Below are positions 1,120 through 60,319 of a DNA stretch of 64,000 bases, piece after piece. Positions within the stretch are counted from its first letter, which is position 1, and each line of letters starts with the position of its first letter. The notes below the pieces were generated by a model. That model saw only the letters and a program-made list of their open reading frames with translations, ran no database searches and had not been told where the DNA came from. Source of the DNA: a bacterium. Its GTDB lineage: Bacteria; SM23-31. Location of the stretch: positions 1,118,782 through 1,182,781 of the forward strand of contig OZ244870.1 of the NCBI GenBank assembly GCA_965221205.1, written 5' to 3'. The translations under genes were made by a program, and so were the position numbers.

Positions 1120-1165
1120 CGAATAAATTGACAGTTATACAATATGAAAATGTGGAGCGGACAAC

Positions 1166-1672
1166 GTGAAACATACAATATCATTATTAGTTGAGCAGCA
1201 GTTCAATGCCCTCGCCCGGATAATCGGGATGTTTACCGGACGAGGTTTCGAAATTGACAGCATCTGTTTCGGTACTGCAGAAGAACCCGGAATCACCCGC
1301 GTAACATTGACAACATCGGGCGATGAGAGAATTATTGAGCAGATCACAAAACAGCTGCATAAACTCGTGGATGTCATCAAGGTTGTCGATTTGACCTACG
1401 AGCCTTATGTAGAGCGTGAGCTTGCGTTGATTAAGGTTTCCGCAAATCAGAAAAACCGCCTCGAGATCATGCAGGTTGTCGATGTGTTTCGGGGTACTAT
1501 TATCGACATCAGTCAAAATTCACTAACGATAGAAATAACCGGAAAAGCCGACAAAGTCAATGCGGCTACTAAAATGCTCGATCAGTTCGGACTCCTTGAA
1601 GTTGCACGTACCGGGAGTGTTGCATTGAAGAGAGAATATCAGGAAATGAAACTTAAAGAAAAAGCAGGATAA
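1166..1672 (+). CDS. ilvN: Acetolactate synthase small (regulatory) subunit with ACT domain
   Basis: 168 aa, about the usual size, immediately downstream of ilvB. ACT-like motif ISLLVEQQFNALARIIGMFTGRGFEIDSI and C-terminal AHAS small-subunit domain. Confidence 0.85.
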   Translation: MKHTISLLVEQQFNALARIIGMFTGRGFEIDSICFGTAEEPGITRVTLTTSGDERIIEQITKQLHKLVDVIKVVDLTYEPYVERELALIKVSANQKNRLEIMQVVDVFRGTIIDISQNSLTIEITGKADKVNAATKMLDQFGLLEVARTGSVALKREYQEMKLKEKAG

Positions 1673-1691
1673 ACAAGAGGAGTAACATAGT

Positions 1692-2690
1692 ATGAAATTG
1701 TATTACGAATCCGATGCAGATTTAGGGATACTCGACGGAAAAACAACCGCTATAATCGGGTACGGAAGTCAGGGACACGCCCACGCACTGAATCTGAAAG
1801 ACAGTGGTGCGAGTGTTGTTGTCAGTGATCTGAAGGGAACACCGAACTGGAAAAAAGCTGAAGAAGACGGCTGGAATATTATGGAAGTTGCCGAAGCTGC
1901 AAAACAGGCGGACATCATCTTGATTCTGGTGCCAGACCAATATCAGGCCGACCTGTTCGAAAACGAAATAAAACCGCACCTCGAACTTGGAAATTCTCTG
2001 GTGTTTGCGCACGGATTTAATATCCATTACAAAGGAATTGACCCTCCTAAGGATATCGATGTCTACATGATTGCACCGAAAGGACCGGGACATCTGGTAC
2101 GGCGTGTTTATCAGGAAGGTGGCGGTGTGCCGAGCCTGATCGCAATATATCAGGACTTTACCGGTGACGCAAAAAAGAAAGCGCTTGCCCATGCAAAAGG
2201 TATTGGCGCCACACGTGCCGGTGTGATCGAAACGACATTTAAAGAGGAAACAGAGACGGATTTATTCGGTGAGCAGACTGTCCTGTGCGGCGGTGTAACG
2301 GAGCTCGTCAAAGCCGGATTTCAGACACTCGTCGACGCCGGATATCAGCCGGAAATCTGCTATTTCGAATGTCTTCATGAATTGAAACTTATCGTCGATC
2401 TTTTCTACGAAGGCGGCATCACAGGCATGTATTATTCAGTAAGCGATACAGCTGAATACGGCGGAATGGCAAAGGGAACGGATGTTGTCAATGACGATAC
2501 AAAAGCCCGCATGAAAGTAATACTCGAAAAAGTTCAGAATGGTTCGTTTGCGAGAGAATGGATTAAGGAGAGTAAAGACGGCCTTCCGAATCTCAAAAAA
2601 CTCCGTAAAGAGCACGATGAGCTTTTGATAGAAAAAGTTGGCAAAGAACTCAGACCCATGATGTCATGGATCAAAGATAAGGATAAATAG
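1692..2690 (+). CDS. ilvC: Ketol-acid reductoisomerase (class I, short form)
   Basis: 332 aa with Rossmann N-terminus [20 protein letters not shown] and conserved KARI motifs ([24 protein letters not shown]). Confidence 0.92.
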
Positions 2691-2694
2691 AGTC

Positions 2695-4317
2695 ATGCCT
2701 GATAAAAAAATTGAATTATTTGATACCACACTCCGTGACGGCACGCAGGGAGAACGGGTCTCTTTTTCTGTTGAAGATAAAATACACATCGCGCAACGGC
2801 TCGACGATTTCAGTATGGATTTCATCGAAGGAGGCTGGCCGGGATCGAATCCACGAGATATTAATTTTTTCAAGAGTACCAAGAGCAAAAGCTTCAAACA
2901 TGCGAAAATAGTGGCATTCGGAAGCACCCGGCACAAATCAAACCGTGCAGATAGCGATCCGAATCTCAAAGCGATGCTTGAAGCAGAAACTCCAGCAGTT
3001 TCGATTTTCGGAAAGTCATGGCTTCTCCATGTCGAAACAGCGCTCAAAGTTGATCCGGAAGAGAATTTGAAGATGATTGAAGAGTCGGTCGGTTTCATCC
3101 GTTCTGAAGGCAGAGATGTTATCTATGACGCTGAGCATTTTTTTGACGGGTATAAATCGAATTCTGACTATGCGATCAAAACACTTGCTGCAGCCGAGCG
3201 TGGAGGAGCGTATGTCCTCGTGCTCTGTGATACAAATGGTGGTTCTTCGCCGTTTGAGATAGCGGATATAGTGGCAACGGTCAAAAAGAAACTTTCCACA
3301 CCGCTCGGAATTCATACACATAACGATTCCGGTCTGGCTGTGGCTAACACGCTGTACGCGGTCGAAAACGGTGCAGTGCATGTTCAGGGTACGGTCAACG
3401 GATACGGAGAACGGTGCGGGAATGCAAACCTTTGCACAATCATACCGAATCTTCAGTTGAAAATGGGATATAAATGTGTTTCGGAGAAAAAAATGGCGAA
3501 ACTGACATCGTTGTCGCGTTATGTTAGTGAGATCGCCAATATTACCCATGCGCGGAACCTCCCGTTTGTTGGAAAAAGCGCCTTCGCTCACAAAGGTGGT
3601 ATACATGTGAGCGGTGTGATGCGCGATTCGCGTACCTACGAACATATTGAGCCTGAAACAGTCGGAAACGAACGGAGAGTATTGGTATCAGATCTTTCAG
3701 GAAAGAGCAATATTCAGTTCAAATCGGGAGAGCTGGGCATCGATCTGTCGAAACATCAGGATAAAATTCCAAAGATTATTGAACATCTCAAAGAACTTGA
3801 ACATGCTGGTTATTCATACGAAGCGGCAGAAGGTTCGCTCGAATTGCTTGTCCGGCAGATTACCGGTGAATGGCGGAAATTTTTCGAATTGTGTGGATTC
3901 AGGATTCTGGTCGAAAAAGACGAATCGGGTGAGCCCCGATCGGAAGCCACCATACGAATAAAGGTAGACGGCATCCCGGAGCACGTTGCAGCCGAAGGCA
4001 ACGGACCGGTCCATGCGCTTGATTGCGCACTGCGGAAAACGCTCATTAATTTCTACCCTGAAATTCAAAATATGAGTCTTTTCGATTATAAAGTCCGTGT
4101 TCTGAACCAAAAAAGCGGCACACAGTCCATCGTACGGGTACTCATCGAATTCAAAGCCGATACGCTTTCGTGGAGTACCGTCGGCGTCTCTGAAAATATA
4201 ATCGAGGCAAGCTGGCAGGCTTTGACTGATGGATACTCTTATTTTCTGCTTAAGAACAAGGACATTCACTATACAAGAAAAGTGGGAAAAAAACAAAAAA
4301 ATAAGGAAGTACACTAG
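2695..4317 (+). CDS. cimA: LeuA-family aldolase of the citramalate-synthase (CimA, LeuA-related) type, with C-terminal LeuA-dimer/regulatory domain
   Basis: 540 aa. N-terminus [15 protein letters not shown]. HxH metal site IHTHNDSGLAVANT. Long C-terminal domain. It sits between ilvC and leuA in the operon. The CimA versus LeuA assignment is inferred from length and N-terminal style only. Confidence 0.7.
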   Translation: MPDKKIELFDTTLRDGTQGERVSFSVEDKIHIAQRLDDFSMDFIEGGWPGSNPRDINFFKSTKSKSFKHAKIVAFGSTRHKSNRADSDPNLKAMLEAETPAVSIFGKSWLLHVETALKVDPEENLKMIEESVGFIRSEGRDVIYDAEHFFDGYKSNSDYAIKTLAAAERGGAYVLVLCDTNGGSSPFEIADIVATVKKKLSTPLGIHTHNDSGLAVANTLYAVENGAVHVQGTVNGYGERCGNANLCTIIPNLQLKMGYKCVSEKKMAKLTSLSRYVSEIANITHARNLPFVGKSAFAHKGGIHVSGVMRDSRTYEHIEPETVGNERRVLVSDLSGKSNIQFKSGELGIDLSKHQDKIPKIIEHLKELEHAGYSYEAAEGSLELLVRQITGEWRKFFELCGFRILVEKDESGEPRSEATIRIKVDGIPEHVAAEGNGPVHALDCALRKTLINFYPEIQNMSLFDYKVRVLNQKSGTQSIVRVLIEFKADTLSWSTVGVSENIIEASWQALTDGYSYFLLKNKDIHYTRKVGKKQKNKEVH

Positions 4318-4408
4318 AACTCATCAGCCGGGAATACAAAGTCGAAACTATTTTTACACAATAAGTATTCAACATGATGAGCATCCACGCATGTAAGGGG
4401 TAGCAAAC

Positions 4409-5587
4409 ATGAAGGATAAAGTATTAATATTCGATACTACGTTGAGAGATGGCGAACAATCTCCCGGATTCAGTATGAATCTCGAAGAAAAAACCCGTCT
4501 TGCCCGGCAGTTGGAAAAACTGAATGTCGATATTGTCGAAGCAGGATTTCCAATAGCATCCGATGGTGATTTTCAGGCAGTTCAGGAGGTTTCAAATACA
4601 GTAAGTACCTGTGCTGTTGCTGGATTAAGCAGAACAAAAAAGGGTGATATTGAGCGTGCATGGGAAGCACTGCAGCACGCGAAACATCCACGCATCCACA
4701 CTTTTATCGCAACATCGGATATCCATTTGAAATATAAATTGAGAAAATCCAGGGACGAAGTTATTAACAATGTCGGAGAGGGTGTCCGGCTGGCGAAGAG
4801 TCTCTGTGATGAGGTGGAGTATTCGGCAGAGGATGCCTCACGGAGTGACCGCGATTATCTGTGTCGAGTCCTTGAAACAGCGATAGAAGCCGGTGCCGAT
4901 ATTCTGAATATTCCCGACACTGTTGGCTATACCACCCCGTGGGAGTACGGAAGCCTGATTAAATATATTACTGAAAACACAAAAGATATCGACAAAGCGA
5001 TTATAAGCGTCCATTGCCACAACGATCTCGGTCTTGCAGTCGCAAACTCCCTTGCAGGCGTCCAGAACGGAGCACGGCAAATCGAGTGTACCATGAATGG
5101 TATCGGCGAACGTGCGGGAAATGCTTCTCTCGAGGAACTCGTAATGGTCATGGAGACTCGGCAGCAGGAATTCGACTGCGGAACAGAAGTCAATGCGGGA
5201 GAAATTTTTCCAACGAGTGAGTTGCTTGCTGAAATCACCGGCATCGGTGTACAACCGAACAAGGCAATTGTCGGGAGCAATGCCTTTGCCCACGAAGCAG
5301 GAATACATCAGGACGGTGTGCTGAAAAATCCGTTGACGTATGAAATTATGACACCGCAGTCAGTCGGAGTTCCGAGCAACAAACTGGTAATAGGCAAGCA
5401 CTCCGGAAGACATGCCATCAGTGCAAAATTGCAGGGAATGGGATTCAATCTGACAGACGAAATGCTGAATGTAATCTATAAAGAAGTGATGAAACTGTCA
5501 GATGCAAAAAAGATTGTGCATGACGGAGAATTAAAAAATATTGCGACCGATGTTGTAATGGATAATAAAAAAACAATCGGAATGTAA
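4409..5587 (+). CDS. leuA: 2-isopropylmalate synthase, short form lacking the C-terminal allosteric domain
   Basis: 392 aa. N-terminus [15 protein letters not shown], then [16 protein letters not shown]. It ends soon after subdomain I, so no LeuA_dimer domain is present. Confidence 0.75.
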
Positions 5588-5841
5588 ATTATTCCTCTCT
5601 TGCATCACTATTACAACCGCATTAGATCGCTGAGGATATCAAGCGTATTGATCCATCAGTAACTATATTCAAGAACAACTTCGTCCAACTTATATACCAC
5701 CAGAAACGTAACTTACATTTTGATTTTCTGCGTATAGTTCAGTATTTTAGTATGCTTTACTAATTGAAGTCCGGATGTGTTCTCCTGATTTTATTTCAGG
5801 GACTAGTAACGAAATGATTTTCAATCTATAAATATCGGAAT

Positions 5842-7245
5842 ATGAAAATGAGTAAGAATCTTTTCAACAAAGTGTGGGACCTCCATACGGTTATTAAGCT
5901 TGATTCTGGCCAGACGCAGCTTTTTGTCGGATTGCACCTCATCCATGAGGTGACATCACCGCAGGCATTTCAGATGCTCCGGGAACGCAATCTGGAAGTC
6001 CTCTATCCGGAGCGGACTTTTGCAACTGTCGATCATATTGTACCGACAACCTCGGTGAAGCGCCCCTATACCGACAGTCTTGCAGAAGAGATGATTGAGG
6101 CGATCGAATCAAATACAAACGAATTCGGCATCCGGTTTTTCAGTGTTGAATCGGGAGAGCAGGGGATTGTCCACGTGATCGGGCCTGAACTGGGTTTGAC
6201 CCAGCCGGGAATGATCGTGACATGTGGCGATTCTCACACGGCAACTCATGGCGCGTTCGGTGCCATTGCATTCGGTATTGGGACATCACAAGTTCGTGAT
6301 GTACTTGCAACCCAGTCGATTATAATGAATAAAATGAAAGTCCGGAAAATCTCGGTAAACGGGACCCTTGGTAACGGCATCTATGCAAAAGATATTATTA
6401 TTAAAATCATAGAGAAACTCGGAGTGAACGGCGGCATCGGCCATGCTTATGAATATGCTGGAACCGCAATTGATCAGCTCAACATGGAAGAGCGGATGAC
6501 CATCTGCAATATGAGTATTGAAGGTGGTGCGCGCTGTGGCTATGTCAATCCCGACCAGACAACATTCGATTATATCAAAGGCAGAAAATATGCTCCGAAA
6601 GGTGAAGCATTCGATTCAGCCGTCTCATTCTGGGAATCGATTGCATCGGATTCGGATGCTCACTTCGATGCTGAAGTGACGTTCGATGCTGAAGAGATCG
6701 AACCGATGGTAACCTGGGGTATCAATCCGGGACAGGCTATTCCGGTATCACAGAAAATGCCGCGGCTCGACAATCTGGACATTAATGAGAGAGAGACTGC
6801 AGAGCTCGCCTATAAACATATGGGATTCGATGAAGGCCAAGCAATTAAGGGTGTCTCGATCGATGTTGCGTTTATCGGTTCGTGCACCAACAGCCGGATT
6901 TCCGATCTTCGGGAAGCCGCGAGAATAGTCGAGGGGAATAAAGTCAATCCAAATGTACAGGCGCTGGTTGTTCCGGGATCGATTAAAGTGAAAGAACAAG
7001 CTGTCGAAGAAGGCCTCGACAAAATTTTTAGTGATGCCGGATTTGAATGGCGCGAAGCTGGTTGCTCCATGTGTTTAGCGATGAATCCCGACAAACTCCA
7101 GGGGCGTGAACTGAGCGCTTCGTCGTCAAATAGAAATTTTATCGGCCGGCAGGGATCGCCAGTCGGAAGAACACTGCTTATGAGTCCTGCTATGGTAGCA
7201 GCGGCAGCATTACAAGGTGAGGTAGTCGATGTCCGAGAGTTTTAA
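5842..7245 (+). CDS. leuC: 3-isopropylmalate dehydratase large subunit (aconitase fold)
   Basis: 467 aa with aconitase-family motifs (VTCGDSHT, Cys ligands in GSCTNSR and GCSMCL). Confidence 0.92.
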
Positions 7246-7834
7246 AATTCCACAGGTTAAGGGAACGGCAGTTCCTGTTCGCGGTAACGATATTGATACC
7301 GACCGGATTATTCCGGCACGGTATCTGAAATGTGTGACCTTTGATGGACTGGGTGAATTTGCATTCTATGATATCCGCTATGATGAGAATAAAAATCCAA
7401 TGGATCACCCTTTTAATGATGAACGTTATAAAGGGAGTTCTCTCCTTCTTGTCAATAAGAATTTCGGCTGCGGTTCATCCCGAGAACATGCTCCGCAAGC
7501 ACTGCTCCGCTTCGGTATTAAAGCAATAATCGGAGAGAGTTTTGCCGAAATTTTCGTTGGAAATTGCACAACGCTCGGTGTTCCAGCGGTCACAGCAGCA
7601 TATAATGAAATTGATAATCTGATGCAGTATATTGAATCGCATCCTGATACACAGGTTTCCCTCAATCTGGAAACGAAATTGGTCAGCTATGATAGTACAG
7701 AACTTTCGGTGGACTTGCCGGAACCGTCCCGTCTCGTGCTGGTTGAAGGAACATGGGATTCAACAGCACAGCTGATCGGTAATAAGGAACAAATTGCGGA
7801 AACCGCGGAAAAAATCCCATACCTAAACTGGTAA
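7229..7834 (+). CDS. leuD: 3-isopropylmalate dehydratase small subunit
   Basis: 201 aa, overlaps the leuC stop and has an aconitase swivel-domain sequence ([17 protein letters not shown]). Confidence 0.9.
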
Positions 7835-8032
7835 CAATATAGTTTTTCATAGTATAAGATTTATTAAATAAATTTTTCTTTATGTCATTTCGACCGGAGT
7901 CCCGATTTCAATCGGGCAAGAGTGGAGAAATCTCAACAATAATGCTGCTTATTTTCGTTAAAAAACCTCTACTAAAAATTTAAAAATACAAAATACTACT
8001 CAACTTACACGATTGACATTCGGAGGAAATGA

Positions 8033-9091
8033 ATGTATAAAATTGCAATTCTACCCGGTGACGGCACCGGACCGGAAGTGGTTGATGAAGCGGTCAAGGT
8101 TCTCGATGCTGTAGCACAAAAATTTAATTTTAAATATGAATCCGAATCATACGATTTTGGCGGTTACCGCTATTTGAGCACTGGTGAAATCCTGCCTGAT
8201 TCAGCAGTCGATGAACTGCGGCAATATGATGCAATTCTGCTGGGTGCAATCGGCCATCCCGATGTAAAACCAGGAATTCTCGAGAAAGGAATTCTGCTCC
8301 GGCTCAGATTCGAGCTTGACCAGTATATCAATCTCCGCCCGGTGAAGCTCTATCCCGGCGTCGAAACACCAATCAAGGACAAGGGTCCGGACGATATCGA
8401 TTTTGTCGTTGTTCGTGAAAATACTGGCGGTCTTTACACCGGTGTCGGTGGAATTTCAATGATTGGTACAAAAGACGAAATCGCTGTCCAGTCGATGGTG
8501 TATAATAGATTTCAGGTCGACCGCTGTCTCAAATATGCCTACGAATACACCAAAAAGCGGAAAAAAACCATGACGCTCGGCCTCTGCGGTAAGACAAATG
8601 TGCTGACTTATGTCTATGATCTGTGGGAACGTGCTTTCCATGAGATGGGTGAAAAGGATTATCCTGACATCAAACGAGATTACTACCATGTGGATGCTGT
8701 CACTATGTGGATGGTTAAAAACCCTGAGTGGTTCGATGTAATTGTTACCGGCAATATGTTCGGTGATATCATTACCGATCTCGGTGCTATGGTGCAGGGT
8801 GGTATGGGAATCGCTGCCGGCGGCAATATTAATCCTGAAGGAGTTTCGATGTTCGAACCAATCGGCGGTTCTGCTCCCAAATACACCAGACAAAATATCA
8901 TCAATCCACTTGCGGCAATATCATGTGTCGATATGATGCTCCGCCATCTCGGAGAAGATGGGGCAGGGAAAGCAGTTGAACAGGCCATTATGACAGTGAC
9001 AAAAGATAAATTGAAAAGTCTTGCTGCCGGCCGTATGGGTTATTCGACGACTGAAGTCGGTGATCTGGTTGCCGAAATTGCCGTGCAATAA
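8033..9091 (+). CDS. leuB: 3-isopropylmalate dehydrogenase
   Basis: 352 aa with isocitrate/isopropylmalate dehydrogenase signature (VRENTGGLYTG, NMFGDIITDLGAMVQGGMG). Confidence 0.9.
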   Translation: MYKIAILPGDGTGPEVVDEAVKVLDAVAQKFNFKYESESYDFGGYRYLSTGEILPDSAVDELRQYDAILLGAIGHPDVKPGILEKGILLRLRFELDQYINLRPVKLYPGVETPIKDKGPDDIDFVVVRENTGGLYTGVGGISMIGTKDEIAVQSMVYNRFQVDRCLKYAYEYTKKRKKTMTLGLCGKTNVLTYVYDLWERAFHEMGEKDYPDIKRDYYHVDAVTMWMVKNPEWFDVIVTGNMFGDIITDLGAMVQGGMGIAAGGNINPEGVSMFEPIGGSAPKYTRQNIINPLAAISCVDMMLRHLGEDGAGKAVEQAIMTVTKDKLKSLAAGRMGYSTTEVGDLVAEIAVQ

Positions 9092-9123
9092 ATCGTACTT
9101 TTAAAAGAGCAGGAGGTTCAAAA

Positions 9124-10107
9124 ATGCCTGACTGTAATACAATGAGCAATCCCTCACTGACACTGGAAGATTTTCACAATGCCCGTTCCCGGATATCGGA
9201 GAGTCTCCACTACACTCCCGTTCAGAGCGCAACATTGCTCGGCCGGGAAATGGGAATAGAACTTTTTCTCAAATGCGAAAATCTCCAAAAAACCGGTTCC
9301 TTCAAAGTGAGAGGAGTGCTGAATACCGTTCTCGGACTTGATTCTGGTGCCCGTGGCAATGGTGTTATCACTGTTTCTTCCGGAAACCATGCCCAAGCAC
9401 TTGCATGGGCGGCACAGAAAGCAGAAATCTCCTGCACCGTCGTCATGCCTGATTATGCACAGCAGACTAAAATCGATGCAAGTAAGGGATACGGTGCCAA
9501 AGTCATTCTGCACGACAGCATGATGACTCTCTTCGAACGGGCACACGCTATTGCCGAAGAGCGGAATCTCACTTTCATCCATCCGTTCGATGCAGAATCC
9601 GTCGTTGCCGGACACGGGACTGCCGGTCTCGAAATTCTCGAGCAGGTCGATGATATCGACGTTATCGTTGTTGCTGTTGGTGGTGGCGGTTTAATATCCG
9701 GCATTGCTACAGCTGTTAAACTCATCCATCCGAAAATAAAAATTTACGGTGTCGAGCCCGTCGGAGCAGATGCGATGCGCCGCAGTCTCGATGCCGGAAA
9801 AGCGGTGAAACTCGAACCTGTTGACACAATTGCCGACGGGCTCGCTGCCCCGCTTGCAGGAGAATTGAATTATGTTCTGGTTAAAGAGCATGTCGAGGAT
9901 GTTGTCCTCATTCAAGACAGTGCAATCATTGAAGCAATGAACCTCCTGTTGACATGGTGCAAACTGCTTGCTGAACCCGCAGGTGCCGCGCCGCTTGCAG
10001 CACTCCGTTCCGGTGTCATCCCCTTCAAAAAAAATGACAGAGTAGTCGTCGTTATAAGCGGCGGAAATATCGACGCAGATCGGCTTGCAACCTATCTATC
10101 TCAATGA
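9124..10107 (+). CDS. ilvA: Threonine dehydratase, short form (PLP fold-type II, no C-terminal ACT domains)
   Basis: 327 aa. PLP lysine motif SFKVRGVLN and glycine-rich loop VGGGGLISG. It terminates the ilv/leu operon. Confidence 0.8.
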   Translation: MPDCNTMSNPSLTLEDFHNARSRISESLHYTPVQSATLLGREMGIELFLKCENLQKTGSFKVRGVLNTVLGLDSGARGNGVITVSSGNHAQALAWAAQKAEISCTVVMPDYAQQTKIDASKGYGAKVILHDSMMTLFERAHAIAEERNLTFIHPFDAESVVAGHGTAGLEILEQVDDIDVIVVAVGGGGLISGIATAVKLIHPKIKIYGVEPVGADAMRRSLDAGKAVKLEPVDTIADGLAAPLAGELNYVLVKEHVEDVVLIQDSAIIEAMNLLLTWCKLLAEPAGAAPLAALRSGVIPFKKNDRVVVVISGGNIDADRLATYLSQ

Positions 10108-10453: not shown

Positions 10454-12055
10454 ATGCGAAATATTACATTGCTTTTTGTACCAGCATTATTGTCGATGTT
10501 AGTGCTTTTCCCGCATACAGTATTGAGCCAGAATCCTGCCCCGGATAGAGGACAGGATGAGGGCATTGGTCCATTTGAAACGCTCGTTGTCCGCGGTGCA
10601 ATACTTATAGATGGAACCGGTGCACCACCGAGAGGTCCGGTAGATATTGTGATCAAACGCAACCGGATCGAAAGCATCTTAAGTGCCGGTACGCCCGGTA
10701 TCCCTTTGGAAGATGGACGTGAACCACTTAATGCTGATTATGAACTCGATGCGGAAGGTATGTATATAATGCCGGGCTTTGTTAATCTGCATACTCATGC
10801 AGGAGGTCGGAAGGCGCCTGAAACCGAGTATGTCTATAAACTCTGGCTTGCGCACGGTATTACAACAGTGAGGGGGGTGGCTCTCGGAGGTATGGAATGG
10901 ACGTTGAACGAGCGGGAACGGAGTGCCCGAAACGAGATTTCTGCGCCGAGAATCGTTGCGTACCAACGTCCCGGGTCAGGCAATGAATGGAGTGAACGAT
11001 CGATCCGGACTGGAGAAGATGCGCGTGAGTGGGTCCGTTACGCTGCCCGAAAAGGTATCGACGGTATGAAACTTGTTGCCTTCAGGCCGGAAATAATGGC
11101 CGCGCTCCTTGATGAAGCACAAAAATTAAAACTCGGCTCTACGGCCCATCTTGCTCAGACCGGTGTGGCACAGATGAATGCTCTCGATGCTGCGCGGCTC
11201 GGTCTCGGTTCGTTAACGCATTTCTATGGACTCTTCGAAACGTTGTACAAAGACCATGACGTACAGCCCTGGCCGGCAGATATGAATTATAGTAACGAAC
11301 AGTTCCGCTTCGCACAAGTTGCACGGCAGTGGGACCTTATTCATCCTCAGGGAAGCAAAGAGTGGGACGCTTTACTGCAGGAATTTCTTGATCTTGATTT
11401 TATTCTCGATCCGACAATGACCGCCTATCTGGCGAACAGAGATCTCATGCGCGCCCGAAATGCCGATTGGCATAAGAGCTATACGCTGCCGTCTCTTTGG
11501 GAATTCTACGAACCGAACCGTACAGACCACGGGTCATACTGGTACTACTGGACAACTTCGGATGAGATCGCATGGAAGAGCTTCTTTCGTATTTGGATGT
11601 CATTCTTGGATGATTATAAAGACATGGGAGGCCGCGTAACAGTCAGCGAGGATGCGGCCTATCTCTACAGCCAATGGGGATTTGCGACAATAGAAGAAAT
11701 GGAACTCCTGCAGGAAGCGGGTTTTCATCCTTTAGAAGTGATCCGGAGTGCAACAATGTATGGAGCGGAAGCAATATTTGAACCGAAAGGCAGGCCGATC
11801 GAATATGGAGTAGTCCGTGAAGGTCTTCTGGCGGATCTGGTTGTAATCGATGAAAATCCTCTCGCAAACTTGAAAGTCCTGTATGGTACGGGTTGGCTGC
11901 GATTAAACGATGATACACGAAAAGTCGAAAGGGTTGGGGGAATTAATTATACGATAAAAGACGGTATCCTTTATGATGCAAAACAGCTGCTTGCGGATGT
12001 TGAAGAAATGGTCAAAAAAGCGAAAGAAGAAATGATCAACGGACAGGTTCCTTAA
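10454..12055 (+). CDS. Secreted metal-dependent amidohydrolase-family protein (possible dipeptidase or amide hydrolase)
   Basis: 533 aa with an N-terminal signal peptide (LLFVPALLSMLVLFPHTVLSQ). It has the amidohydrolase-superfamily HxH metal motif NLHTHAGG and a C-terminal DLVVIDENP-type motif. Confidence 0.65.
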   Translation: MRNITLLFVPALLSMLVLFPHTVLSQNPAPDRGQDEGIGPFETLVVRGAILIDGTGAPPRGPVDIVIKRNRIESILSAGTPGIPLEDGREPLNADYELDAEGMYIMPGFVNLHTHAGGRKAPETEYVYKLWLAHGITTVRGVALGGMEWTLNERERSARNEISAPRIVAYQRPGSGNEWSERSIRTGEDAREWVRYAARKGIDGMKLVAFRPEIMAALLDEAQKLKLGSTAHLAQTGVAQMNALDAARLGLGSLTHFYGLFETLYKDHDVQPWPADMNYSNEQFRFAQVARQWDLIHPQGSKEWDALLQEFLDLDFILDPTMTAYLANRDLMRARNADWHKSYTLPSLWEFYEPNRTDHGSYWYYWTTSDEIAWKSFFRIWMSFLDDYKDMGGRVTVSEDAAYLYSQWGFATIEEMELLQEAGFHPLEVIRSATMYGAEAIFEPKGRPIEYGVVREGLLADLVVIDENPLANLKVLYGTGWLRLNDDTRKVERVGGINYTIKDGILYDAKQLLADVEEMVKKAKEEMINGQVP

Positions 12056-12230
12056 CATACATTACTATAGGTGTATATATTTATTGTTGGTCTCGTGCGA
12101 TTAAAATATCTGTATAATCTTTTACAATCACGCTATTTTATTTATTAAGTGTGCAATAATATTTATATTATTTGTAAATTTTAGTCGTGCTTAGACACTT
12201 TTTTGAAACCATAGCATAATTTTTTTCAAT

Positions 12231-13517
12231 ATGAAAACTTCTCATAAAATAATTAATGGTGATTGTCGACAGATGAATTGTTTGTCCAACAAATCTGTTC
12301 ATTTAGTCATTACATCGCCACCTTATTGGCATTTAAAAGATTATGGCATAGAAAATCAAATTGGATTTCATGATAGTTATGAAAACTATATAAACAACTT
12401 AAATTTGGTTTGGAAAGAGTGCCACAGAGTTTTATATCCTGGTTGTCGACTTTGTGTAAATATTGGAGACCAATTTGCTCGTTCTGTATATTACGGTCGT
12501 TATAAAATCATCCCGATTAGAACAGAAATAATAAAATTTTGTGAAACAATAGGTTTCGATTACATGGGGGCTATTATTTGGCAGAAGGTGACCACAACCA
12601 ATACGACTGGCGGAGCGACTATAATGGGAAGTTATCCTTATCCTCGAAATGGAATATTAAAACTTGATTACGAGTTTATTCTTTTATTTAAAAAGCACGG
12701 CAAAGCACCGAAACCATTTGCTGAGCAAAAGAAATTATCTGAATTGAGCAAGGAAGAATGGAATACATATTTTTCAGGGCATTGGAATTTTTCAGGAGCA
12801 AAACAAAACAATCATCTTGCTATGTTTCCTGAAGAATTACCTGCTAGATTAATAAAAATGTTTGCTTTTATTGATGAAACAGTTTTAGATCCTTTCTTGG
12901 GGAGTGGAACAACTTCTCTTGCAGCGAAAAATTTAGGACGCAATTCAATCGGTTATGAAATCAATCAAGAATATATTCCTAAAATCAAAGAAAAACTCAA
13001 CATGTTACAATTTGATATCGAAAAAACTGAATATATTTTCTTAAATGATAGTATAAAATCTGACTTGAATAAGGATATTAATGAACTTCCGTATATATTT
13101 AAAGACCCACTTAAATTAGATAAAATTATTAATCCTAAAAAATCACAATTTGGTTCAAAAATTGATATAAACAGGAAAGAACGAGAAGAGTATTATTCAG
13201 TGAAAGAAATCATTAGTCCTGAGTTAATAAAACTTAATAATGATTTGACTATTCGTTTGCTTGGTGTAAAAAATAAAGAAAGTAAAAATGTGGAGGCTAT
13301 TCAGTTTCTTTCTGATAAGACTAAAGGGGAAAAGGTATTTTTAAAATACGATGATATAAAGTATGATAAAAATAGCAATTTGCTTTGTTATTTATATTTG
13401 AAAAATAAGACATTCATTAATTCTCATTTAATAAAAGAAGGACTGGCAGAAGTTAATCAATCTGTAGATTTTAAATACAAAGACAAATTTCAAAAGTTGG
13501 CGATAAATAATGGCTAA
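12231..13517 (+). CDS. Beta-class (motif IV before motif I) N6-adenine/N4-cytosine DNA methyltransferase fused to a C-terminal degenerate thermonuclease (SNase-like) domain
   Basis: Motif IV is ITSPPYW near the N-terminus and motif I is LDPFLGSGTTSLAAKNLGRNSIGYE downstream. C-terminal residues ~300-428 resemble the staphylococcal-nuclease fold (IRLLGVKNKE ... LCYLYLKNKTFINSHLIKEGLAEV). The gene lies in a roughly 2 kb AT-rich island. Confidence 0.75.
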   Translation: MKTSHKIINGDCRQMNCLSNKSVHLVITSPPYWHLKDYGIENQIGFHDSYENYINNLNLVWKECHRVLYPGCRLCVNIGDQFARSVYYGRYKIIPIRTEIIKFCETIGFDYMGAIIWQKVTTTNTTGGATIMGSYPYPRNGILKLDYEFILLFKKHGKAPKPFAEQKKLSELSKEEWNTYFSGHWNFSGAKQNNHLAMFPEELPARLIKMFAFIDETVLDPFLGSGTTSLAAKNLGRNSIGYEINQEYIPKIKEKLNMLQFDIEKTEYIFLNDSIKSDLNKDINELPYIFKDPLKLDKIINPKKSQFGSKIDINRKEREEYYSVKEIISPELIKLNNDLTIRLLGVKNKESKNVEAIQFLSDKTKGEKVFLKYDDIKYDKNSNLLCYLYLKNKTFINSHLIKEGLAEVNQSVDFKYKDKFQKLAINNG

Positions 13518-13550
13518 ATAATGGCTAAATAATGGATATTGAATAGCTCA

Positions 13551-14162
13551 ATGAACCGATTCCAATTGAATTTCAAACGGAATGTTGGTCCAACTTCTGA
13601 AAATATACGAATGTGTGCTCCAGCGACTATTGAAGAATGGCGAGAATATTATTTTGAAAACGTTAGACCTAAAGAGCATATTGAAGATCTTGGCAGGAAA
13701 TTATATATTAAGATTACAGAAGTTATTTCAGCTGAAGTAGAAAAAATTACCGAACAGGATTGCATAAATTATATGATGCAATTAGTTATTGACCGGACAT
13801 TCGATGGTTATATGACAGAAATTAAAACAATTTATGGCCAGCTTCAAAAACTACTTGGTATAAAAATCGAACCTGCGCCTGACGAGTGGGATAGACTGTA
13901 CAACGTAGACTTCTGTATTAAAATTAATGAAAAGTTTGTCGGAATACAAATAAAACCAGTAAATCAAGGTATTCAGCTACCTCAGATATTTAAAGAAAAG
14001 GAGATTCAACGTAAATCTCATGAAAAGTTTAAAGATCGATTTGGCGGCAAGGTATTTTATGTCTTTTCTTCTAAAAAAGAAGACAAAAAAGAAATTATTA
14101 ATAAAGAAGTGGTTAGTGAGATATTACAAGAGATTGATCGATTAATATTAGATAACGATTAA
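13551..14162 (+). CDS. Candidate restriction endonuclease or other nuclease partner of the methyltransferase (unknown family)
   Basis: About 200 aa, starting 20-35 bp after the MTase stop on the same strand, with the same AT-rich composition. It has a possible PD-(D/E)xK-like arrangement VDFCIKINEKFVGIQIK. The assignment rests on gene context only. Confidence 0.35.
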   Translation: MNRFQLNFKRNVGPTSENIRMCAPATIEEWREYYFENVRPKEHIEDLGRKLYIKITEVISAEVEKITEQDCINYMMQLVIDRTFDGYMTEIKTIYGQLQKLLGIKIEPAPDEWDRLYNVDFCIKINEKFVGIQIKPVNQGIQLPQIFKEKEIQRKSHEKFKDRFGGKVFYVFSSKKEDKKEIINKEVVSEILQEIDRLILDND

Positions 14163-14283
14163 TTCCCTCTTGTTTAACCAAGTATACAATCACGTAACCT
14201 TTAGTTACGATAGCGATACGTTAAAAATAACGTGAGAATCAAATCAAGAAAGTACTAAAAATTTCCATAAACCATGAGGATAT

Positions 14284-15654: not shown

Positions 15655-15914
15655 GCTTTAATTATAAGATTAAATTCGAATATATGTATTTACTGTGATG
15701 AACAGTATCGAAAATCTTTCTGTATTGAGAGGAGTGAGCAGTTCAATTCGGTTGTATATAGTGTGCTTATCGAGCTTTGCAGTTTTATCTTTATTTTCAT
15801 GCAGCGAAAATTCTCCATTTGATTTTCTGACGTGGCAGGACATCGCTGCTTTGCCTGTATGCCGACTACCGAATTCAGTATGGTGACGGTGAATTACAGT
15901 TTGGAAATCTGCGT

Positions 15915-16547
15915 TTGCCGGAAACTTCCGGATTACATCCTCTTGTGGTTGTCATTCATGGTGGGTGCTGGCTCAACACGTTCGACCTTGAGCATGCCGG
16001 AAATCTCTGTGCGGTATTTTCCGAAGCAGGAATCGCGACTTGGAGTCCAGAATATCGGCGTGTTGGCGACATCGGTGGAGGATGGCCGGGGACCTTTGAA
16101 GATGTAGCTCAAGGTTTAGACTATGTTCGGGAATTAGCAGAGATTTATCCGATCGATGTAAACCGGGTGATTACAGTCGGGCACTCTGCTGGCGGACATC
16201 TAGCACTCTGGTTGGCTGCACGAGCAAATTTGTCTCAGGATAGTCCTCTCTATACACCGGAACCATACCGGATACAAGGAGTCGTTTCACTTGCAGGCAT
16301 TACAGATATAAAAACATACAGTGCCGGTCCGAACGACTGCAATCAAGCGGCTCTCCATCTGCTTGGTGGAACAGTTGCAGATGTAAAAGACCGATATGAC
16401 CAGACAAATCCTCTTGATCTGCTTCCTTTCGGCATTACACAGCGATTGATTCACGGTTATCATGATGAAATAGTTTCTCCGGATCAAGCTCGAATGTATG
16501 TTGAGCGTGCTCAAAATGTCGGAGATGACGCTGAGAAATTATTATGA
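15915..16547 (+). CDS. Alpha/beta-hydrolase esterase/lipase (HGG oxyanion motif plus GHSAGG nucleophile elbow); the 5' region is apparently frameshifted away from a lipoprotein-type signal peptide in the 15695 frame
   Basis: Motifs VVIHGGCW and GHSAGGHLALW. Upstream ORF 15695-15886 encodes a signal/lipobox-like peptide (LSLFSCSENS). The hydrolase frame continues upstream as YADYRIQYGDGELQFGNLRLPE only after a frame change near 15840-15860. Confidence 0.65.
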   Translation: MPETSGLHPLVVVIHGGCWLNTFDLEHAGNLCAVFSEAGIATWSPEYRRVGDIGGGWPGTFEDVAQGLDYVRELAEIYPIDVNRVITVGHSAGGHLALWLAARANLSQDSPLYTPEPYRIQGVVSLAGITDIKTYSAGPNDCNQAALHLLGGTVADVKDRYDQTNPLDLLPFGITQRLIHGYHDEIVSPDQARMYVERAQNVGDDAEKLL

Positions 16548-21592: not shown

Positions 21593-23128
21593 TTACCATG
21601 GCAATGGAGCAACACGAGGCAGTTTTTCATCCCGCATAGCTGCATGATATACGAATGTTGCAAGTATAACCGTATTTGCCATGAGGTCTTCGGGTACAAG
21701 ACGGTCAAATACGTCCATGTTGGAGTGGTACCTGCGACCGTCCATTCTATCCTGTAGAAAATAATACCCCGGAAGTCCTACCTCATCATATGCCTCATGT
21801 GCCATTCCCGTAGAAAAAAGATGTCTCATTCCCAGGTTGTAAAGCGGCTTCATCCATTCGGTAAAGATTGACCGGGTCATTTCATTACCCATAATGTTCA
21901 GACCTTTTATTCTGGCAGCGCCGTTATCGATGTTAAAATATGCCGATAGATTATGATAATCTGGTTTATATTCCTTTTTAGCAAGGTTGGCAAAATTATT
22001 TCGGACATGACTCCGGTTGCCGTATAAACCCATTTCATGTCCACCCCAGAGTCCAATTCGTAGTGTTCTCCGCGGTTTGATACCGAGTGCCTTGAAGATA
22101 CGAACTACTTCCATTGAAACAATAGTACCGGCGCCATCATCAGTTGCACCTGTCCCGACGGGCTCCGACTGAAGATGTCCGCCTACTACAACTAATTCAT
22201 CTGCCAGGTCTGTACCGGGAATCTCTGCGACAACATTATAATCATTCGGATCGTCTCTGGGGAAATCCACTTTAATATCAATTTCCAATTCCACTGGGAT
22301 CCCTTTTTCAAGAATACGTACAATCCTGTTGTAATGTTCCGCTGCCATAATAATCTCTCTGATGGGTGGCGGAGCATCCGTATTCCACATTTGATTTGTC
22401 ATAGCATATCCCCCTACCGCAGTATCGACTGTGCCGAAATCATTTTTCCCATCCGTTCGGGCAACCATATAGGCACCTGCTGCGAACAACATGTCGATTT
22501 TCTGCTCCTGCGAAAGCCCGGCATTACGGCGTCTGCGCTCGCGAACAACAGGAGGGCCGACGGGAGTTTTCGCCATTTCGTCCAATTCTTCTTCGGTATA
22601 TGGTTGTGTCATCGGCTCAAAGTGCGGTGTGATTACCTGTTTCGCCTGCATAAAAACAATTTTATCCCGAATAGTATTCCGGTATGTATCAAGGTCCGAT
22701 TCGGTGTTAATTTCATCAAGATTAATATGTATTGCCTCTGCCTCTATTTTTCCGTCTGTTCCGGCAGACCAAGCAGCAGGATACGCTATGATAGGCATAT
22801 ATTGGGGGGCAATCATGTGGATGGATGTGTATAAATTTTCCCAGCCTACACCAAATTCGAACGGTTCCAGCCGCACATTTGAGAGTCCATACTCTTCCAG
22901 TTTTTCTTTCGCCCATTGTGCAGCAGCATTATAACCGGATGATTTCGAGTTCCGGGGCCCATACACATCAGTTATCCAGCTGGCATTCTCCATCACTTCA
23001 GAGCGTTCAAATGCTTCGTCCATGATCTTATCGACGACATCCCAGTGGACCGGTTCCTGTGCAAAGACAGTTGAAGTTACAGCAACTGTTAAAAACAATG
23101 CTACCATGTATCTGTAATAATTACTCAT
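21593..23128 (-). CDS. Secreted M28-like (PA-domain-containing) metallopeptidase-fold protein, paralog 1 of 7
   Basis: Signal peptide ending AQEPVHWDVV. M28-like core GGHLQSEPVGTGATDDGAG ... WGGHEMGLYGN ... HSNMDVFDRL. Conserved C-terminal tail DEKLPRVAPLPW. Confidence 0.6.
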   Translation of the reverse strand: MSNYYRYMVALFLTVAVTSTVFAQEPVHWDVVDKIMDEAFERSEVMENASWITDVYGPRNSKSSGYNAAAQWAKEKLEEYGLSNVRLEPFEFGVGWENLYTSIHMIAPQYMPIIAYPAAWSAGTDGKIEAEAIHINLDEINTESDLDTYRNTIRDKIVFMQAKQVITPHFEPMTQPYTEEELDEMAKTPVGPPVVRERRRRNAGLSQEQKIDMLFAAGAYMVARTDGKNDFGTVDTAVGGYAMTNQMWNTDAPPPIREIIMAAEHYNRIVRILEKGIPVELEIDIKVDFPRDDPNDYNVVAEIPGTDLADELVVVGGHLQSEPVGTGATDDGAGTIVSMEVVRIFKALGIKPRRTLRIGLWGGHEMGLYGNRSHVRNNFANLAKKEYKPDYHNLSAYFNIDNGAARIKGLNIMGNEMTRSIFTEWMKPLYNLGMRHLFSTGMAHEAYDEVGLPGYYFLQDRMDGRRYHSNMDVFDRLVPEDLMANTVILATFVYHAAMRDEKLPRVAPLPW

Positions 23129-23160
23129 AATATTTCTCTCCTCTCAAGTTGAATATTTTC

Positions 23161-24807
23161 TTACCATAGTTTTTCAATTTCATCGGTGAGACCGGTCATC
23201 TCCCACCGCACTAACGACATGGGGATCATTCCCAAAGCCCTGAAATCATCGACAAATTCACCAAGAACAAAATCATCACCACGGACTTTTGCTGCATCTT
23301 CTATCAAACTCATCATCTGTATTTTCCCGAGAACCATTCCCATATGCCAACCGGGAGCACGAAGTGTCGTCTTCATCTCAAACCAGACTTCATGACCTCC
23401 ATCGATCATCCAGTTGTATGGTGTTTCTTCGTAGCAAAACTGGAGCGCATCGGCCAGGTCAAATTCATTGTTATGCATTTTCAGATCGGCCAGACCACGC
23501 ACAGCCCGGAAGGCTTTCGCGATTAAATTGACCTCCTCTCCACGTGGACGGTCTTCATAAATTCCGGAATGCAGAAAAATTTCTTCGAGTCCGAAAGCCA
23601 TACCCTCATTCCGAATCATATCGATATCATAGAGCCTGGTGGTTCCCCGTATCGGTCGTCCGTCACGCTGATGTATTAATTCATCCAGATGGTGACCAAG
23701 GTTATTATGTGCCACTTCGGCAATCATATCACGGTCTCTGCACTGTTGAAAAAAGTCCTGTTTGTCTTCCGATCCAGGTGCATTCCACCATTCTCCCGGA
23801 TTGTTCGTTGTCATATAGTCCGGTATGGTGAACAAACCTTCATCCTCGATGAATTGAAACATATACTGTTCATCATTTCGCCATCGCCGCTGGTACTCTT
23901 CAGGAGATGAAACTAACTGAAGGGGAGGCAGATTGCGGTTTCTGTGCTCAACAATTTTAAGCGCCCCGACTGAGTGTTCATATTCTCGCTCGAGGCTTGC
24001 GTACAGTTCATCCCAGGTATAGGGAACAAGATGCACATTTTTGAGCCACCAGTTATAGTTTTCTTTTCCGATTCCCGCTGGAGTGGTCATTGAATTAATG
24101 TTCGCTTCGATCCATTTACCGTAATCCTCCACTGCGGCAATTGCCAGTTCAATTTCTGAGAGCATTTCGGGATGGTGTTCCGTCAATTGTTTGCCGAGGT
24201 TTTCATACAGTTTTATTTCTCTTTCAAGAAAATGCAGAGCAATGAGAGCGAAATCCCCAGCTGCTTCGGTGAGATTCCCCTTTGCCTGTTCAAGCAGTTC
24301 AGGAGCAGCCCGAAGCTGTGCTCTGAAATTCGCAGCTTCTTCTTCAGACATTGGCAGTTCGGAAATTCTTGGTCTTCCATAAGCCGTCGGTCCGGCACCT
24401 CCCATAGAAAATAAGTAGAATACAGGATCCCGCGACCACGGCCTGCGTATTGTATGGTCGAATTCCAGACCGTTCATTTCTGCACGCACTACGTGGTAAT
24501 CCACTTGCTGCAAAACAGGCCAGTCACTTAAATTAATCGCCGCAAGTCGTTGCTGATATTCCTGTATTCTGCTGAACTGTTCCCTCAGTGCTGAAGCAGT
24601 GTAGTCGGGAACACTATTGATTTCTTTCGGTCTCTCAAATTCTCGAAATTCCTGAAAAAGTGCAATGAGATCATCATATGAATTCAATTCTGTCATGTCG
24701 GTTCTGCTACTCTCCGAAGTACACGACACGAAGAGGAGGATAAAAAGATACATGCAAACTCGTATTTTCAAATAATGTCTGTTCATAATATTCTCCAAAT
24801 ATTTCAT
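23161..24807 (-). CDS. Secreted hypothetical protein, possibly DUF885-like, embedded in the M28-like gene array
   Basis: 548 aa with N-terminal signal/lipoprotein sequence (LFILLFVSCTSES). Contains NLGHHLDELIH and GGHEVWFEMK segments. The DUF885 assignment is from memory of that family's conserved HH-containing motifs and is unverified. Confidence 0.35.
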   Translation of the reverse strand: MKYLENIMNRHYLKIRVCMYLFILLFVSCTSESSRTDMTELNSYDDLIALFQEFREFERPKEINSVPDYTASALREQFSRIQEYQQRLAAINLSDWPVLQQVDYHVVRAEMNGLEFDHTIRRPWSRDPVFYLFSMGGAGPTAYGRPRISELPMSEEEAANFRAQLRAAPELLEQAKGNLTEAAGDFALIALHFLEREIKLYENLGKQLTEHHPEMLSEIELAIAAVEDYGKWIEANINSMTTPAGIGKENYNWWLKNVHLVPYTWDELYASLEREYEHSVGALKIVEHRNRNLPPLQLVSSPEEYQRRWRNDEQYMFQFIEDEGLFTIPDYMTTNNPGEWWNAPGSEDKQDFFQQCRDRDMIAEVAHNNLGHHLDELIHQRDGRPIRGTTRLYDIDMIRNEGMAFGLEEIFLHSGIYEDRPRGEEVNLIAKAFRAVRGLADLKMHNNEFDLADALQFCYEETPYNWMIDGGHEVWFEMKTTLRAPGWHMGMVLGKIQMMSLIEDAAKVRGDDFVLGEFVDDFRALGMIPMSLVRWEMTGLTDEIEKLW

Positions 24808-24844
24808 CGATTACTTCACAGTTGAATAGTTTTATATGATTTCA

Positions 24845-26434: not shown

Positions 26435-26467
26435 TGTATTCCTTATATTGTATGTTGAAGAGTTACT

Positions 26468-28018: not shown

Positions 28019-28060
28019 AGTACTATTTACACCTCCTGCTATAAAATCAAATGAAATTCC

Positions 28061-29623: not shown

Positions 29624-29657
29624 TAGTACGCCCCTATAAATTATTTGATATAATATG

Positions 29658-31205: not shown

Positions 31206-31589
31206 AGAAAAACCCTCCTGAAACAATGTACATATTTAAATTATTTCGGACACCACATCTTTAATAGTACCTAATAGTACCTTTTGAATATTGATTTTAC
31301 AAGTGTTTTTTCTTCCTCTCCATGCAGATTCGATAAATATAAGAATTCATAGCCGTGAGGTTGATTGAAAAACCTCAAAGATGAATAACCGGGGTTCTAT
31401 ATTTTACTTCATTATCATTTTATACAGATTGTTATTCTCACTAAAATTTTGTATATTACTACCGTAGTTTTTGAAAGGTTGTTCACAAGCAGTCAAAGAC
31501 GAATCCTGGAGTAGGATACTGTTCGCCGGAACATGTTCCTGATCCGGGTTTTTGTATTTTGTCTACACTGTTTATTGGAAGTTGTGATG

Positions 31590-60075: not shown

Positions 60076-60319
60076 AAATGAAAGATTAAAAAACAGCCTC
60101 AATTCCATACGGGTTAGGCTGTATAGCAATAAACCCTCCTTATATGTGCAAATAAAGTTTTAATCGTTGTCTATATTATATTGGAGGAGAGTTACCTGGA
60201 TTACTACCTTTCGGAGGAGGTGCGAAAATAAGATTTGGATAAACCAAATCTATCCCTTAGTTTTTAACCGAAAGTGTCCAACATGTTCTGATGATGTAAA
60301 CTCAATCAGGAATTACACA

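Follow-up and report, generated by a model that had tools for sequence, protein, structure and literature searches.

The 64,000-nucleotide window analysed here (positions 1,118,782 to 1,182,781 of contig OZ244870.1, assembly GCA_965221205.1, from a bacterium of the GTDB lineage SM23-31) carries an inserted island of 2,072 bp (12123..14194) with two co-directional genes on the forward strand. The first gene (12231..13517) encodes a type II beta-class amino-methyltransferase (MTase) of 428 aa; the second, an open reading frame (ORF) that begins after a spacer of 21 nt (13539..14162), encodes a restriction endonuclease (REase) of the MjaI family, 207 aa long when read from a TTG codon and 203 aa when read from the ATG at 13551. 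The GC profile drops to 0.24-0.36 across 12000-14200, compared to roughly 0.46-0.55 on both sides, and the insert as a whole has a GC content of 0.30 compared to 0.43 for the window; a preliminary description of this DNA, made from the letters alone, had placed an AT-rich island at 12100-14200, and these coordinates proved accurate. The island is very probably an orthodox type II restriction-modification (R-M) cassette of the MjaI/MthZI kind that was acquired horizontally, and the type II assignment follows from the identity of the 207-aa ORF as an MjaI-family (PF09568) PD-(D/E)XK REase located beside the MTase. The island is not a novel defence system; it is an ordinary pair of a known REase family and a known MTase class, and the suggestion that it might be another defence or addiction module is rejected, given that both genes fall squarely within type II R-M families.

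The MTase matches the Pfam family N6_N4_Mtase (PF01555) at residues 23-253 (1.4e-44, 153 bits against a cut-off of 26.7), and the PADLOC model MTase_II PDLC03259 aligns with it at 1e-185 over residues 3-422 of 423, the C-terminal tail included. The closest solved structure, TTHA0409 (PDB 2zie; 7.5e-54), covers the core only (residues 5-256). The catalytic motif IV, SPPY (residues 29-32, 12315..12326), which is invariant in the family alignment, precedes the S-adenosylmethionine-binding motif I of the FxGxG type (F222-L-G-S-G226, 12894..12908), which is conserved in the same alignment and lies within DPFLGSGTT (residues 220-228). This is the motif order of the beta class, as had been noticed at the outset.

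The 207-aa protein matches RE_MjaI (PF09568) at 5.7e-49 (166.6 bits against a cut-off of 22.7) over profile positions 4-160 of 164, and the PADLOC type II REase model REase_II PDLC03450 at 1.5e-29; no NCBIfam model matches the REase, and a phmmer search against the PDB gave no match. The ORF in the window lacks the first 6-10 residues of the family. MjaI and PF09568 have been placed in the PD-(D/E)XK superfamily (PMC2441816, PMC3424549). In an AlphaFold2 model of the REase (mean predicted local distance difference test score, pLDDT, 71, with the N-terminal 27 residues poorly predicted), a long helix (residues 72-106) is followed by a beta-hairpin (125-129 and 132-140) and further strands. Across three subclades of REases, down to ~35% identity, the invariant residues include E94 in the long helix, D124, with which the first hairpin strand opens, and Q137-I-K139 in the second strand; in the model, these residues are candidates for the active site, the putative catalytic hairpin being encoded at 13908..13955 (+; D124 at 13908-13910, Q137-I-K139 at 13947-13955). 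The motif is thus a D...(Q)xK variant, and MthZI has S-I-K at the corresponding position. These observations support the classification of the REase as a PD-(D/E)XK enzyme with a conserved acidic/Lys hairpin, in line with the earlier mention of a PD-(D/E)xK-like segment in a downstream ORF of ~200 aa.

The extent of the insert was defined by blastn and a junction alignment against a related contig (L083), which gave breakpoints at 12122/14194. This contig represents an empty site: the amidohydrolase and SNF transporter genes that flank the island in the window lie ~137 bp apart in L083, without the cassette, and the L083 flanks are ~90% identical to those of the window. Sister strains, namely contigs L001 and L002 (1.8 and 2.0 Mb) and NCBI genomes of 3.78-3.83 Mb, have the same cassette at the same site. 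In the empty site (L083, 7630-7700), there is one TAAACTTT at the position where the insert is bracketed by TAATCTTT on the left (12115..12122) and TAACCTTT on the right (14195..14202); judging from this alignment, the bracketing octamers may be an 8-bp target-site duplication, although the three copies differ at one base. Immediately inside, the insert begins and ends with a 10-bp direct repeat, TACAATCACG (12123..12132 and 14185..14194), which occurs in exact form nowhere else in the window and is found at the same places in L001 and L002. The repeat is absent from the R-M borders of 80 other loci and therefore is not a conserved mobile-element end. No integrase or transposase gene is present in the ORF list of the 2.07-kb insert. 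The window contains no tRNA genes and no Rfam families above threshold, so there is neither a tRNA-linked integration signal nor an RNA regulator; similarly, the ORF list contains no ORF of at least 50 aa at 12056-12230, which leaves no room there for a controller (C) protein. Just upstream of the MTase start, a sigma-70-like promoter match (TAGACA-17-CATAAT, 10/12 consensus positions; 12192..12220, +) is present; sigma-70-like matches in the region are no more numerous than expected from shuffled sequence, and promoters of other types may be in use in the host.

The composition and phylogenetic affinity of the two genes point in the same direction. Among the related loci, R-M genes have a mean GC content of 0.36 compared to 0.42 for their flanks and are lower than the flanks in 61 of 67 cases. 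The host ketol-acid reductoisomerase IlvC shows at most 80% identity to any other protein and 67-72% identity to named proteins from KSB1, Calditrichaeota, Balneolales and Marinimicrobia, whereas the M and R proteins of the window share 77-80% identity with counterparts in other phyla and in archaea. Because of the empty site, the low GC content of the R-M genes and the greater proximity of the R-M proteins than of IlvC to other phyla and archaea, the cassette was, on the evidence of these alignments, acquired horizontally and entered a housekeeping region where an ilv/leu biosynthesis cluster ends. Since the nearest named relatives of IlvC (67-72%) come from KSB1, Calditrichaeota and Balneolales, the host, an uncultured bacterium, can be roughly placed in a poorly sampled lineage of the FCB group.

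Comparison of strains revealed damage to the start of the REase. The protein opens with MAKEWILNS(A/S)MNRFQLNF in sister strains as well as in distant homologues, and in many of these, among them the sister strains, the ATG of the REase gene overlaps the stop codon of the MTase gene (ATGGCTAA), an arrangement that implies coupled translation in which the MTase comes first. In the window, the junction reads MAK*WILNSSMNRF, whereas L002 reads MAKEWILNSSMNRF: the native start codon is followed by GCT AAA and then by TAA, a nonsense codon at position 4 (13521..13532, +; G->T at 13530, where relatives have GAA). In addition, an 11-bp unit, TAAATAATGGC/A, is present in three tandem copies that extend across the MTase stop and the REase start (13504..13536, +), compared to two imperfect copies of TAAATAATGGC in relatives, and the extra copy moves the native REase ATG away from the MTase stop. 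The only possible starts for the remaining ORF are the internal TTG at 13539 (native codon 7) and the ATG at 13551 (native codon 11); inspection by eye identified no Shine-Dalgarno-like sequence ahead of either. The lesion is unlikely to be a sequencing error because the 203-aa form (P0243) recurs in an NCBI genome and in independent assemblies. In L001 (7210-7990), an unrelated +1 frameshift cuts the REase to 133 aa (P0242), ahead of the catalytic hairpin, whereas two other strains have an intact REase of 213 aa; in L002, the comparison covered the same interval (7210-7990). Thus, independent REase lesions are found in two of the four near-identical strains, whereas the MTase is intact in all four and ~99% identical across the window strain and its sister strains. 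In this species, the REase thus seems to be in decay, whereas the MTase is retained. We also considered phase variation through the 11-bp repeat and judged it unlikely: inactivation stems from a point nonsense mutation, and both ORFs would stay intact with the duplication alone.

Restriction is probably reduced or lost in the window strain, with methylation persisting, since the native start is broken and any REase would have to begin internally, without coupling. The principal alternative, which we consider a substantial though lesser possibility, is that the cassette is still a fully working R-M system, with the REase translated from the internal TTG (13539) or ATG (13551) and the loss of the first 6-10 residues harmless. 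Several observations are compatible with this scenario and weigh against loss of restriction: the ORF is intact to its normal stop and, despite the truncation, still spans nearly the entire RE_MjaI profile, so that the protein could be active if translated; the N-terminal 27 residues of the model are of low confidence; N-termini differ in MthZI and in the ~35% subclade; and the 203-aa form is annotated as a gene in the NCBI genome. However, MAKEW hardly varies within the close clade, and similar starts (MEKEW, MAKDW, MAKEY) are also seen in the ~48% subclade; the REase start no longer overlaps the MTase stop, and by eye the internal starts are without a recognizable ribosome-binding sequence; and the removal of the catalytic hairpin by the independent frameshift in a sister strain is suggestive of relaxed selection on the REase in this species. 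We therefore favour reduced or lost restriction in the window strain.

With regard to target specificity, MjaI (MJ0984), from which the REase family takes its name, is a biochemically active CTAG enzyme (PMC2615612), and M.MjaI, M.MthZI, M.BfaI and Haloferax HVO_0794 are beta-class MTases of 303-364 aa that produce N4-methylcytosine (m4C) in CTAG and have SPPY rather than DPPY (PMC5867850). A protein search of annotated plasmids identified pFZ1, where the gene for M.MthZI (355 aa) adjoins a gene annotated as 'MjaI family restriction endonuclease'; the encoded REase (R.MthZI) matches PF09568 at 5.7e-64, and M.MthZI gives no match to the staphylococcal nuclease (SNase) family. The MTase core of the window is 35% identical to M.MthZI (residues 1-257, 5e-43), and the REase is 27% identical to R.MthZI (4e-10). 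In the window, CTAG is the most depleted of the 16 palindromic 4-mers (23 observed vs. 60 expected, observed/expected ratio 0.38), and the only CTAG in the island is located inside the MTase gene (12844). Because both characterised PF09568 enzymes, MjaI and MthZI, cut CTAG and the MTase shares SPPY, the best prediction from these comparisons is that the pair probably targets CTAG, with m4C as the modification.

This prediction is weakened by the low identities on which it rests, in particular, the mere 27% between the REase and R.MthZI, and by TTHA0409, the closest solved MTase relative, for which no target was found in the literature searched; furthermore, CTAG depletion is common in prokaryotes with or without such an R-M system. 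The same low similarity (just 27-35% identity to the characterised CTAG pair) leaves some room for an R-M pair with a different target or with adenine methylation, which we consider less likely, though an appreciable possibility: REase families can hold several specificities, and automatic names from JGI and NCBI call the MTase 'adenine-specific' or 'YhdJ'. However, these names are generic family labels, and the two characterised REases of the family, the SPPY (not DPPY) motif shared with the m4C CTAG enzymes and the depletion of CTAG in the window all speak for the CTAG/m4C assignment.

Both genes belong to large families. A protein search with the MTase returned at least 8,000 candidates; the best 120 of these are 75-80% identical to the query, mostly 426-432 aa long, and most contain both PF00565 (the SNase domain) and PF01555. 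For the REase, 4,805 relatives were found; NCBI gives several of them the name 'MjaI family restriction endonuclease', in groups as distant from each other as Thermodesulfobacteriota, Syntrophales, Lokiarchaeota and Methanophagales. When a single genome was scanned for each species, ~558 loci were identified that encode an MTase relative with 65-79% identity, in Bacteroidota, Ignavibacteriota, Chlorobiota, Desulfobacterota, Nitrospirota, Marinimicrobia, Planctomycetota, Verrucomicrobiota, Gammaproteobacteria, Clostridia and Parcubacteria. Pairing was examined at the locus level in 80 of the 558 loci (L003-L082). An MjaI-family REase is encoded at 66 of these 80 loci; it usually follows the MTase immediately, but at a few loci it lies 1.8-2.9 kb downstream. 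Eleven loci for which the sequence continues for at least 1.2 kb downstream have no REase. The REases form three subclades, with about 70-78%, 48% and 33-40% identity to the reference REase P0121. A constant MTase (65-79%) next to divergent REases, sometimes with intervening DNA, suggests replacement or shuffling of the REase. Examples of such REases are found at L003 5283-5975, L047 2664-3368 and L006 5313-5918. In annotated phage and plasmid records, only the MTase core was matched (coverage of at most 69%) and none of the matches has the tail; REase matches in annotated plasmids are distant (22-23% identity). The MTase with the tail is, as judged from these searches, the normal form of a large mobile R-M family, and this architecture was already present in the PADLOC defence-system library (2023). 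Accordingly, of the earlier characterization as an 'unusual type II R-M pair', the type II assignment stands and the adjective does not, the MTase form being standard for a very large family; nor can the MTase-SNase fusion be called uncommon, given the ~558 loci, the 8,000 or more candidates and a PADLOC model that runs through nearly the whole fused protein.

The tail of the MTase consists of a conserved basic linker, LPYIFKDPxKLDKKIDPKKxQFGSKID (residues 286-320, 13086..13190, +, from the family alignment), and a degenerate SNase-like domain (residues ~321-423, 13191..13499, +) that is predicted to be non-catalytic. PF00565 matches residues 341-423 at 4.4e-9 with the full protein and, in the Pfam check that the preliminary description had proposed for its SNase-like C-terminus, at 3.7e-10 with the tail alone (37-41 bits against a gathering cut-off of 21); the NCBIfam thermonuclease model NucI gives a weak match to the MTase (4e-7). 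A single-sequence phmmer search of the PDB with the tail gave no match; only a family profile of 15 divergent tails (30-54% identity) did, matching ~270 PDB thermonuclease chains (best E 2e-6). Among the 677 representatives retrieved by an exhaustive phmmer search with the tail are genuine multi-SNase proteins (P0341, P0352 and P0394; 1e-12 to 1e-16), and the remaining matches that were checked are fragments or divergent forms of the same MTase architecture. The homology of the tail to SNase is real. The two outcomes that the preliminary description had named as speaking against its reading, absence of an SNase match in the tail and a non-nuclease partner protein, were both checked, and neither occurred.

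Residues were mapped by HMMER alignment to Staphylococcus aureus nuclease and counted in alignments of close (23) and divergent (15) sequences. Among the Ca2+ ligands, D21 corresponds to E331 in the window (mostly E in the family), D40 to K347 (K in 21/23) and T41 to N348 (N, E or A). The general base E43 corresponds to E350, a position occupied by E, K, G, P, V or Q in the family, and the catalytic residues R35 and R87 correspond to R342 (R or K) and N383 (N, H, Q or R), respectively; thus, of the catalytic R35/E43/R87, the family keeps R35 alone, as R/K. By contrast, the structural residues Y91, Y93 and N100 (Y387, Y389 and N397 in the window) are invariant, and R105 is represented by K402 (K or R). 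The tail is clearly under constraint: on average, the commonest residue has a frequency of 0.77 here and of 0.83 across the basic linker, compared to 0.61 in the variable stretch 258-285 just before the linker. With the Ca2+-binding and catalytic residues lost, these patterns lead to the prediction that the SNase fold has been retained for a non-catalytic purpose; the earlier reading of the substituted positions as signs of a probably inactive DNA-binding module agrees with D40->K, T41->N and R87->N.

What the tail does can be addressed through its distribution. The full-length tail is kept in nine loci without an REase within +/-4 kb, and the MTase family pairs with three REase subclades; therefore, the tail would serve the MTase rather than M-R contact. 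Most likely, by analogy with CcrM's C-terminal domain described below, it is an accessory, non-catalytic part of the MTase itself that binds or clamps DNA. More ambitiously, and only tentatively, the dead SNase-fold tail and the basic linker could jointly be an essential DNA-handling module, which might act as a clamp on the non-target strand or let the MTase slide and thereby enable efficient m4C methylation of a very short, 4-bp site; if so, this could explain why the MTase has spread to hundreds of species of bacteria and archaea, with 65-80% identity. The AlphaFold2 model of the full-length MTase (from a 25-sequence alignment) has a pLDDT of only 32, so that both the oligonucleotide/oligosaccharide-binding (OB)/SNase fold and any DNA-binding surface are predictions from sequence homology.

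There is a small chance that the tail instead makes protein contacts, either docking or regulating the partner REase or holding MTase dimers together, without binding DNA. Beta-class MTases are generally dimeric (PMC7544214), and linkage between the M and R genes is tight, with overlap at many loci, as such a role might lead one to expect; however, the tail is conserved alike with three REase subclades that range from 33 to 78% identity to P0121 and with no REase at all, and in solved beta-class MTases the dimer contacts are made by the core domain (PMC6787082). Gating of REase activity by the tail through M-R contact is a more speculative variant. That the tail is an active nuclease with a rearranged site, which would turn the MTase into a bifunctional enzyme for both modification and cleavage or into a second toxin, is highly improbable: true SNase homology, the strong conservation of the domain, the persistence of R35 as R/K and the acidic E331 at the D21 position would fit, but D40 is replaced by K almost throughout, T41, E43 and R87 are unconserved in close and divergent alignments alike, the conserved positions (Y91, Y93, N100, R105) are structural, a dedicated REase gene lies beside the MTase at most loci, and solitary MTases that bear the tail would be self-toxic if it cut DNA.

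Under the interpretation of the island as a horizontally acquired type II R-M cassette with a DNA-binding tail on its MTase, the following sequence of events can be proposed. A low-GC cassette of 2.07 kb would have been inserted by horizontal transfer between the amidohydrolase and SNF transporter genes, as an operon with the MTase first and the REase second. The SPPY MTase would produce N4-methylcytosine in CTAG, shielding host DNA, with the tail (the last ~140 residues, i.e. the basic linker and the dead SNase fold) binding or clamping DNA for it, and the REase would cut unmethylated CTAG. The native ATG/stop overlap would couple translation of the REase to that of the MTase and place it after the latter. 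In the window strain, the nonsense codon at position 4 and the 11-bp duplication break this junction, such that any REase could be made only from the uncoupled internal TTG or ATG.

New here are the definition of the insertion by an empty site and the two independent REase lesions. The empty site, which comes from a fifth related contig with ~90% identical flanks, together with the intact cassettes and the two cassettes with a damaged REase, provides a natural snapshot of acquisition, restriction loss and drift toward an orphan MTase. For annotation, the island is best labelled as an MjaI-family type II R-M cassette for which CTAG/m4C specificity is predicted and in which the REase start is damaged. 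The literature searched contained no relevant description of an SNase-MTase fusion, and a degenerate SNase-fold domain on a widespread MTase bears on how beta-class MTases recruit accessory DNA-binding domains.

The genomic surroundings can be described briefly. Upstream of the island (58-10107) lies a branched-chain amino-acid biosynthesis cluster that includes an acetolactate synthase fragment, IlvC, LeuC, LeuD, a LeuB-like Iso_dh protein, a PALP threonine dehydratase-like protein and two HMGL-like synthases, one of the LeuA type with an allosteric domain and the other shorter and CimA-like. Downstream of the SNF transporter, L083 encodes an alpha/beta-hydrolase of 315 aa (BD-FAE/Abhydrolase; 9151-10098). 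The counterpart region of the window (15655-16547) has just a TTG-start ORF of 210 aa (15915-16547), preceded by a gap of low GC content and by short ORFs that overlap in other frames, and in the sister strains a product of 136 aa is called at this position; the hydrolase counterpart may be a pseudogene in the lineage of the window. On the minus strand, six successive head-to-tail ORFs of 511-555 aa occupy 21593-31226; the two that were scanned encode an M28 peptidase and a DUF885 protein, and a further M28 peptidase is encoded at 60167-61867. Together with the SNF and SSF transporters, the M28/DUF885 genes look like a peptide and amino-acid scavenging set.

Comparison with known systems places the individual parts of the cassette. 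The tail of the MTase shares with staphylococcal nuclease/thermonuclease (PF00565) the conserved equivalents of R35, Y91, Y93, N100 and R105; the nuclease is a secreted protein with D40, T41, E43 and R87, whereas the tail has lost these residues, is fused to an MTase and is not secreted. CcrM offers a functional analogy only: it likewise combines a beta-class core and a linker with a C-terminal domain of ~90-100 aa, which is SAND/PWWP-like, binds the non-target strand non-specifically and abolishes activity when deleted (PMC6787082). However, the CcrM domain is not of the SNase type and has no sequence relationship to the tail, and CcrM is an orphan enzyme that produces N6-methyladenine (m6A) in GANTC; in line with this, CcrM (6pbd) aligns to the MTase core only (residues 181-256), and the tail does not match the CcrM domain at residues 271-358. 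TTHA0409 of Thermus thermophilus shares SPPYW with the MTase of the window, but consists of 297 aa and has no C-terminal SNase-like domain.

The closest known counterparts are MthZI (pFZ1, Methanothermobacter) and MjaI (MJ0984/MJ0985, Methanocaldococcus jannaschii), each of which likewise pairs a beta-class SPPY MTase of the PF01555 family with a PF09568 REase of ~200 aa. M.MthZI, M.MjaI and M.BfaI are shorter proteins (303-364 aa), and M.MthZI, unlike the MTase of the window, is without an SNase-like domain; in addition, the M and R genes of pFZ1 are convergent, whereas those of the window are arranged co-directionally, M before R, and natively overlap. The PADLOC/REBASE-derived models PDLC03259 and REase_II PDLC03450 represent the same family as the cassette described here, and the copy in the window differs from them only in its damaged REase start.

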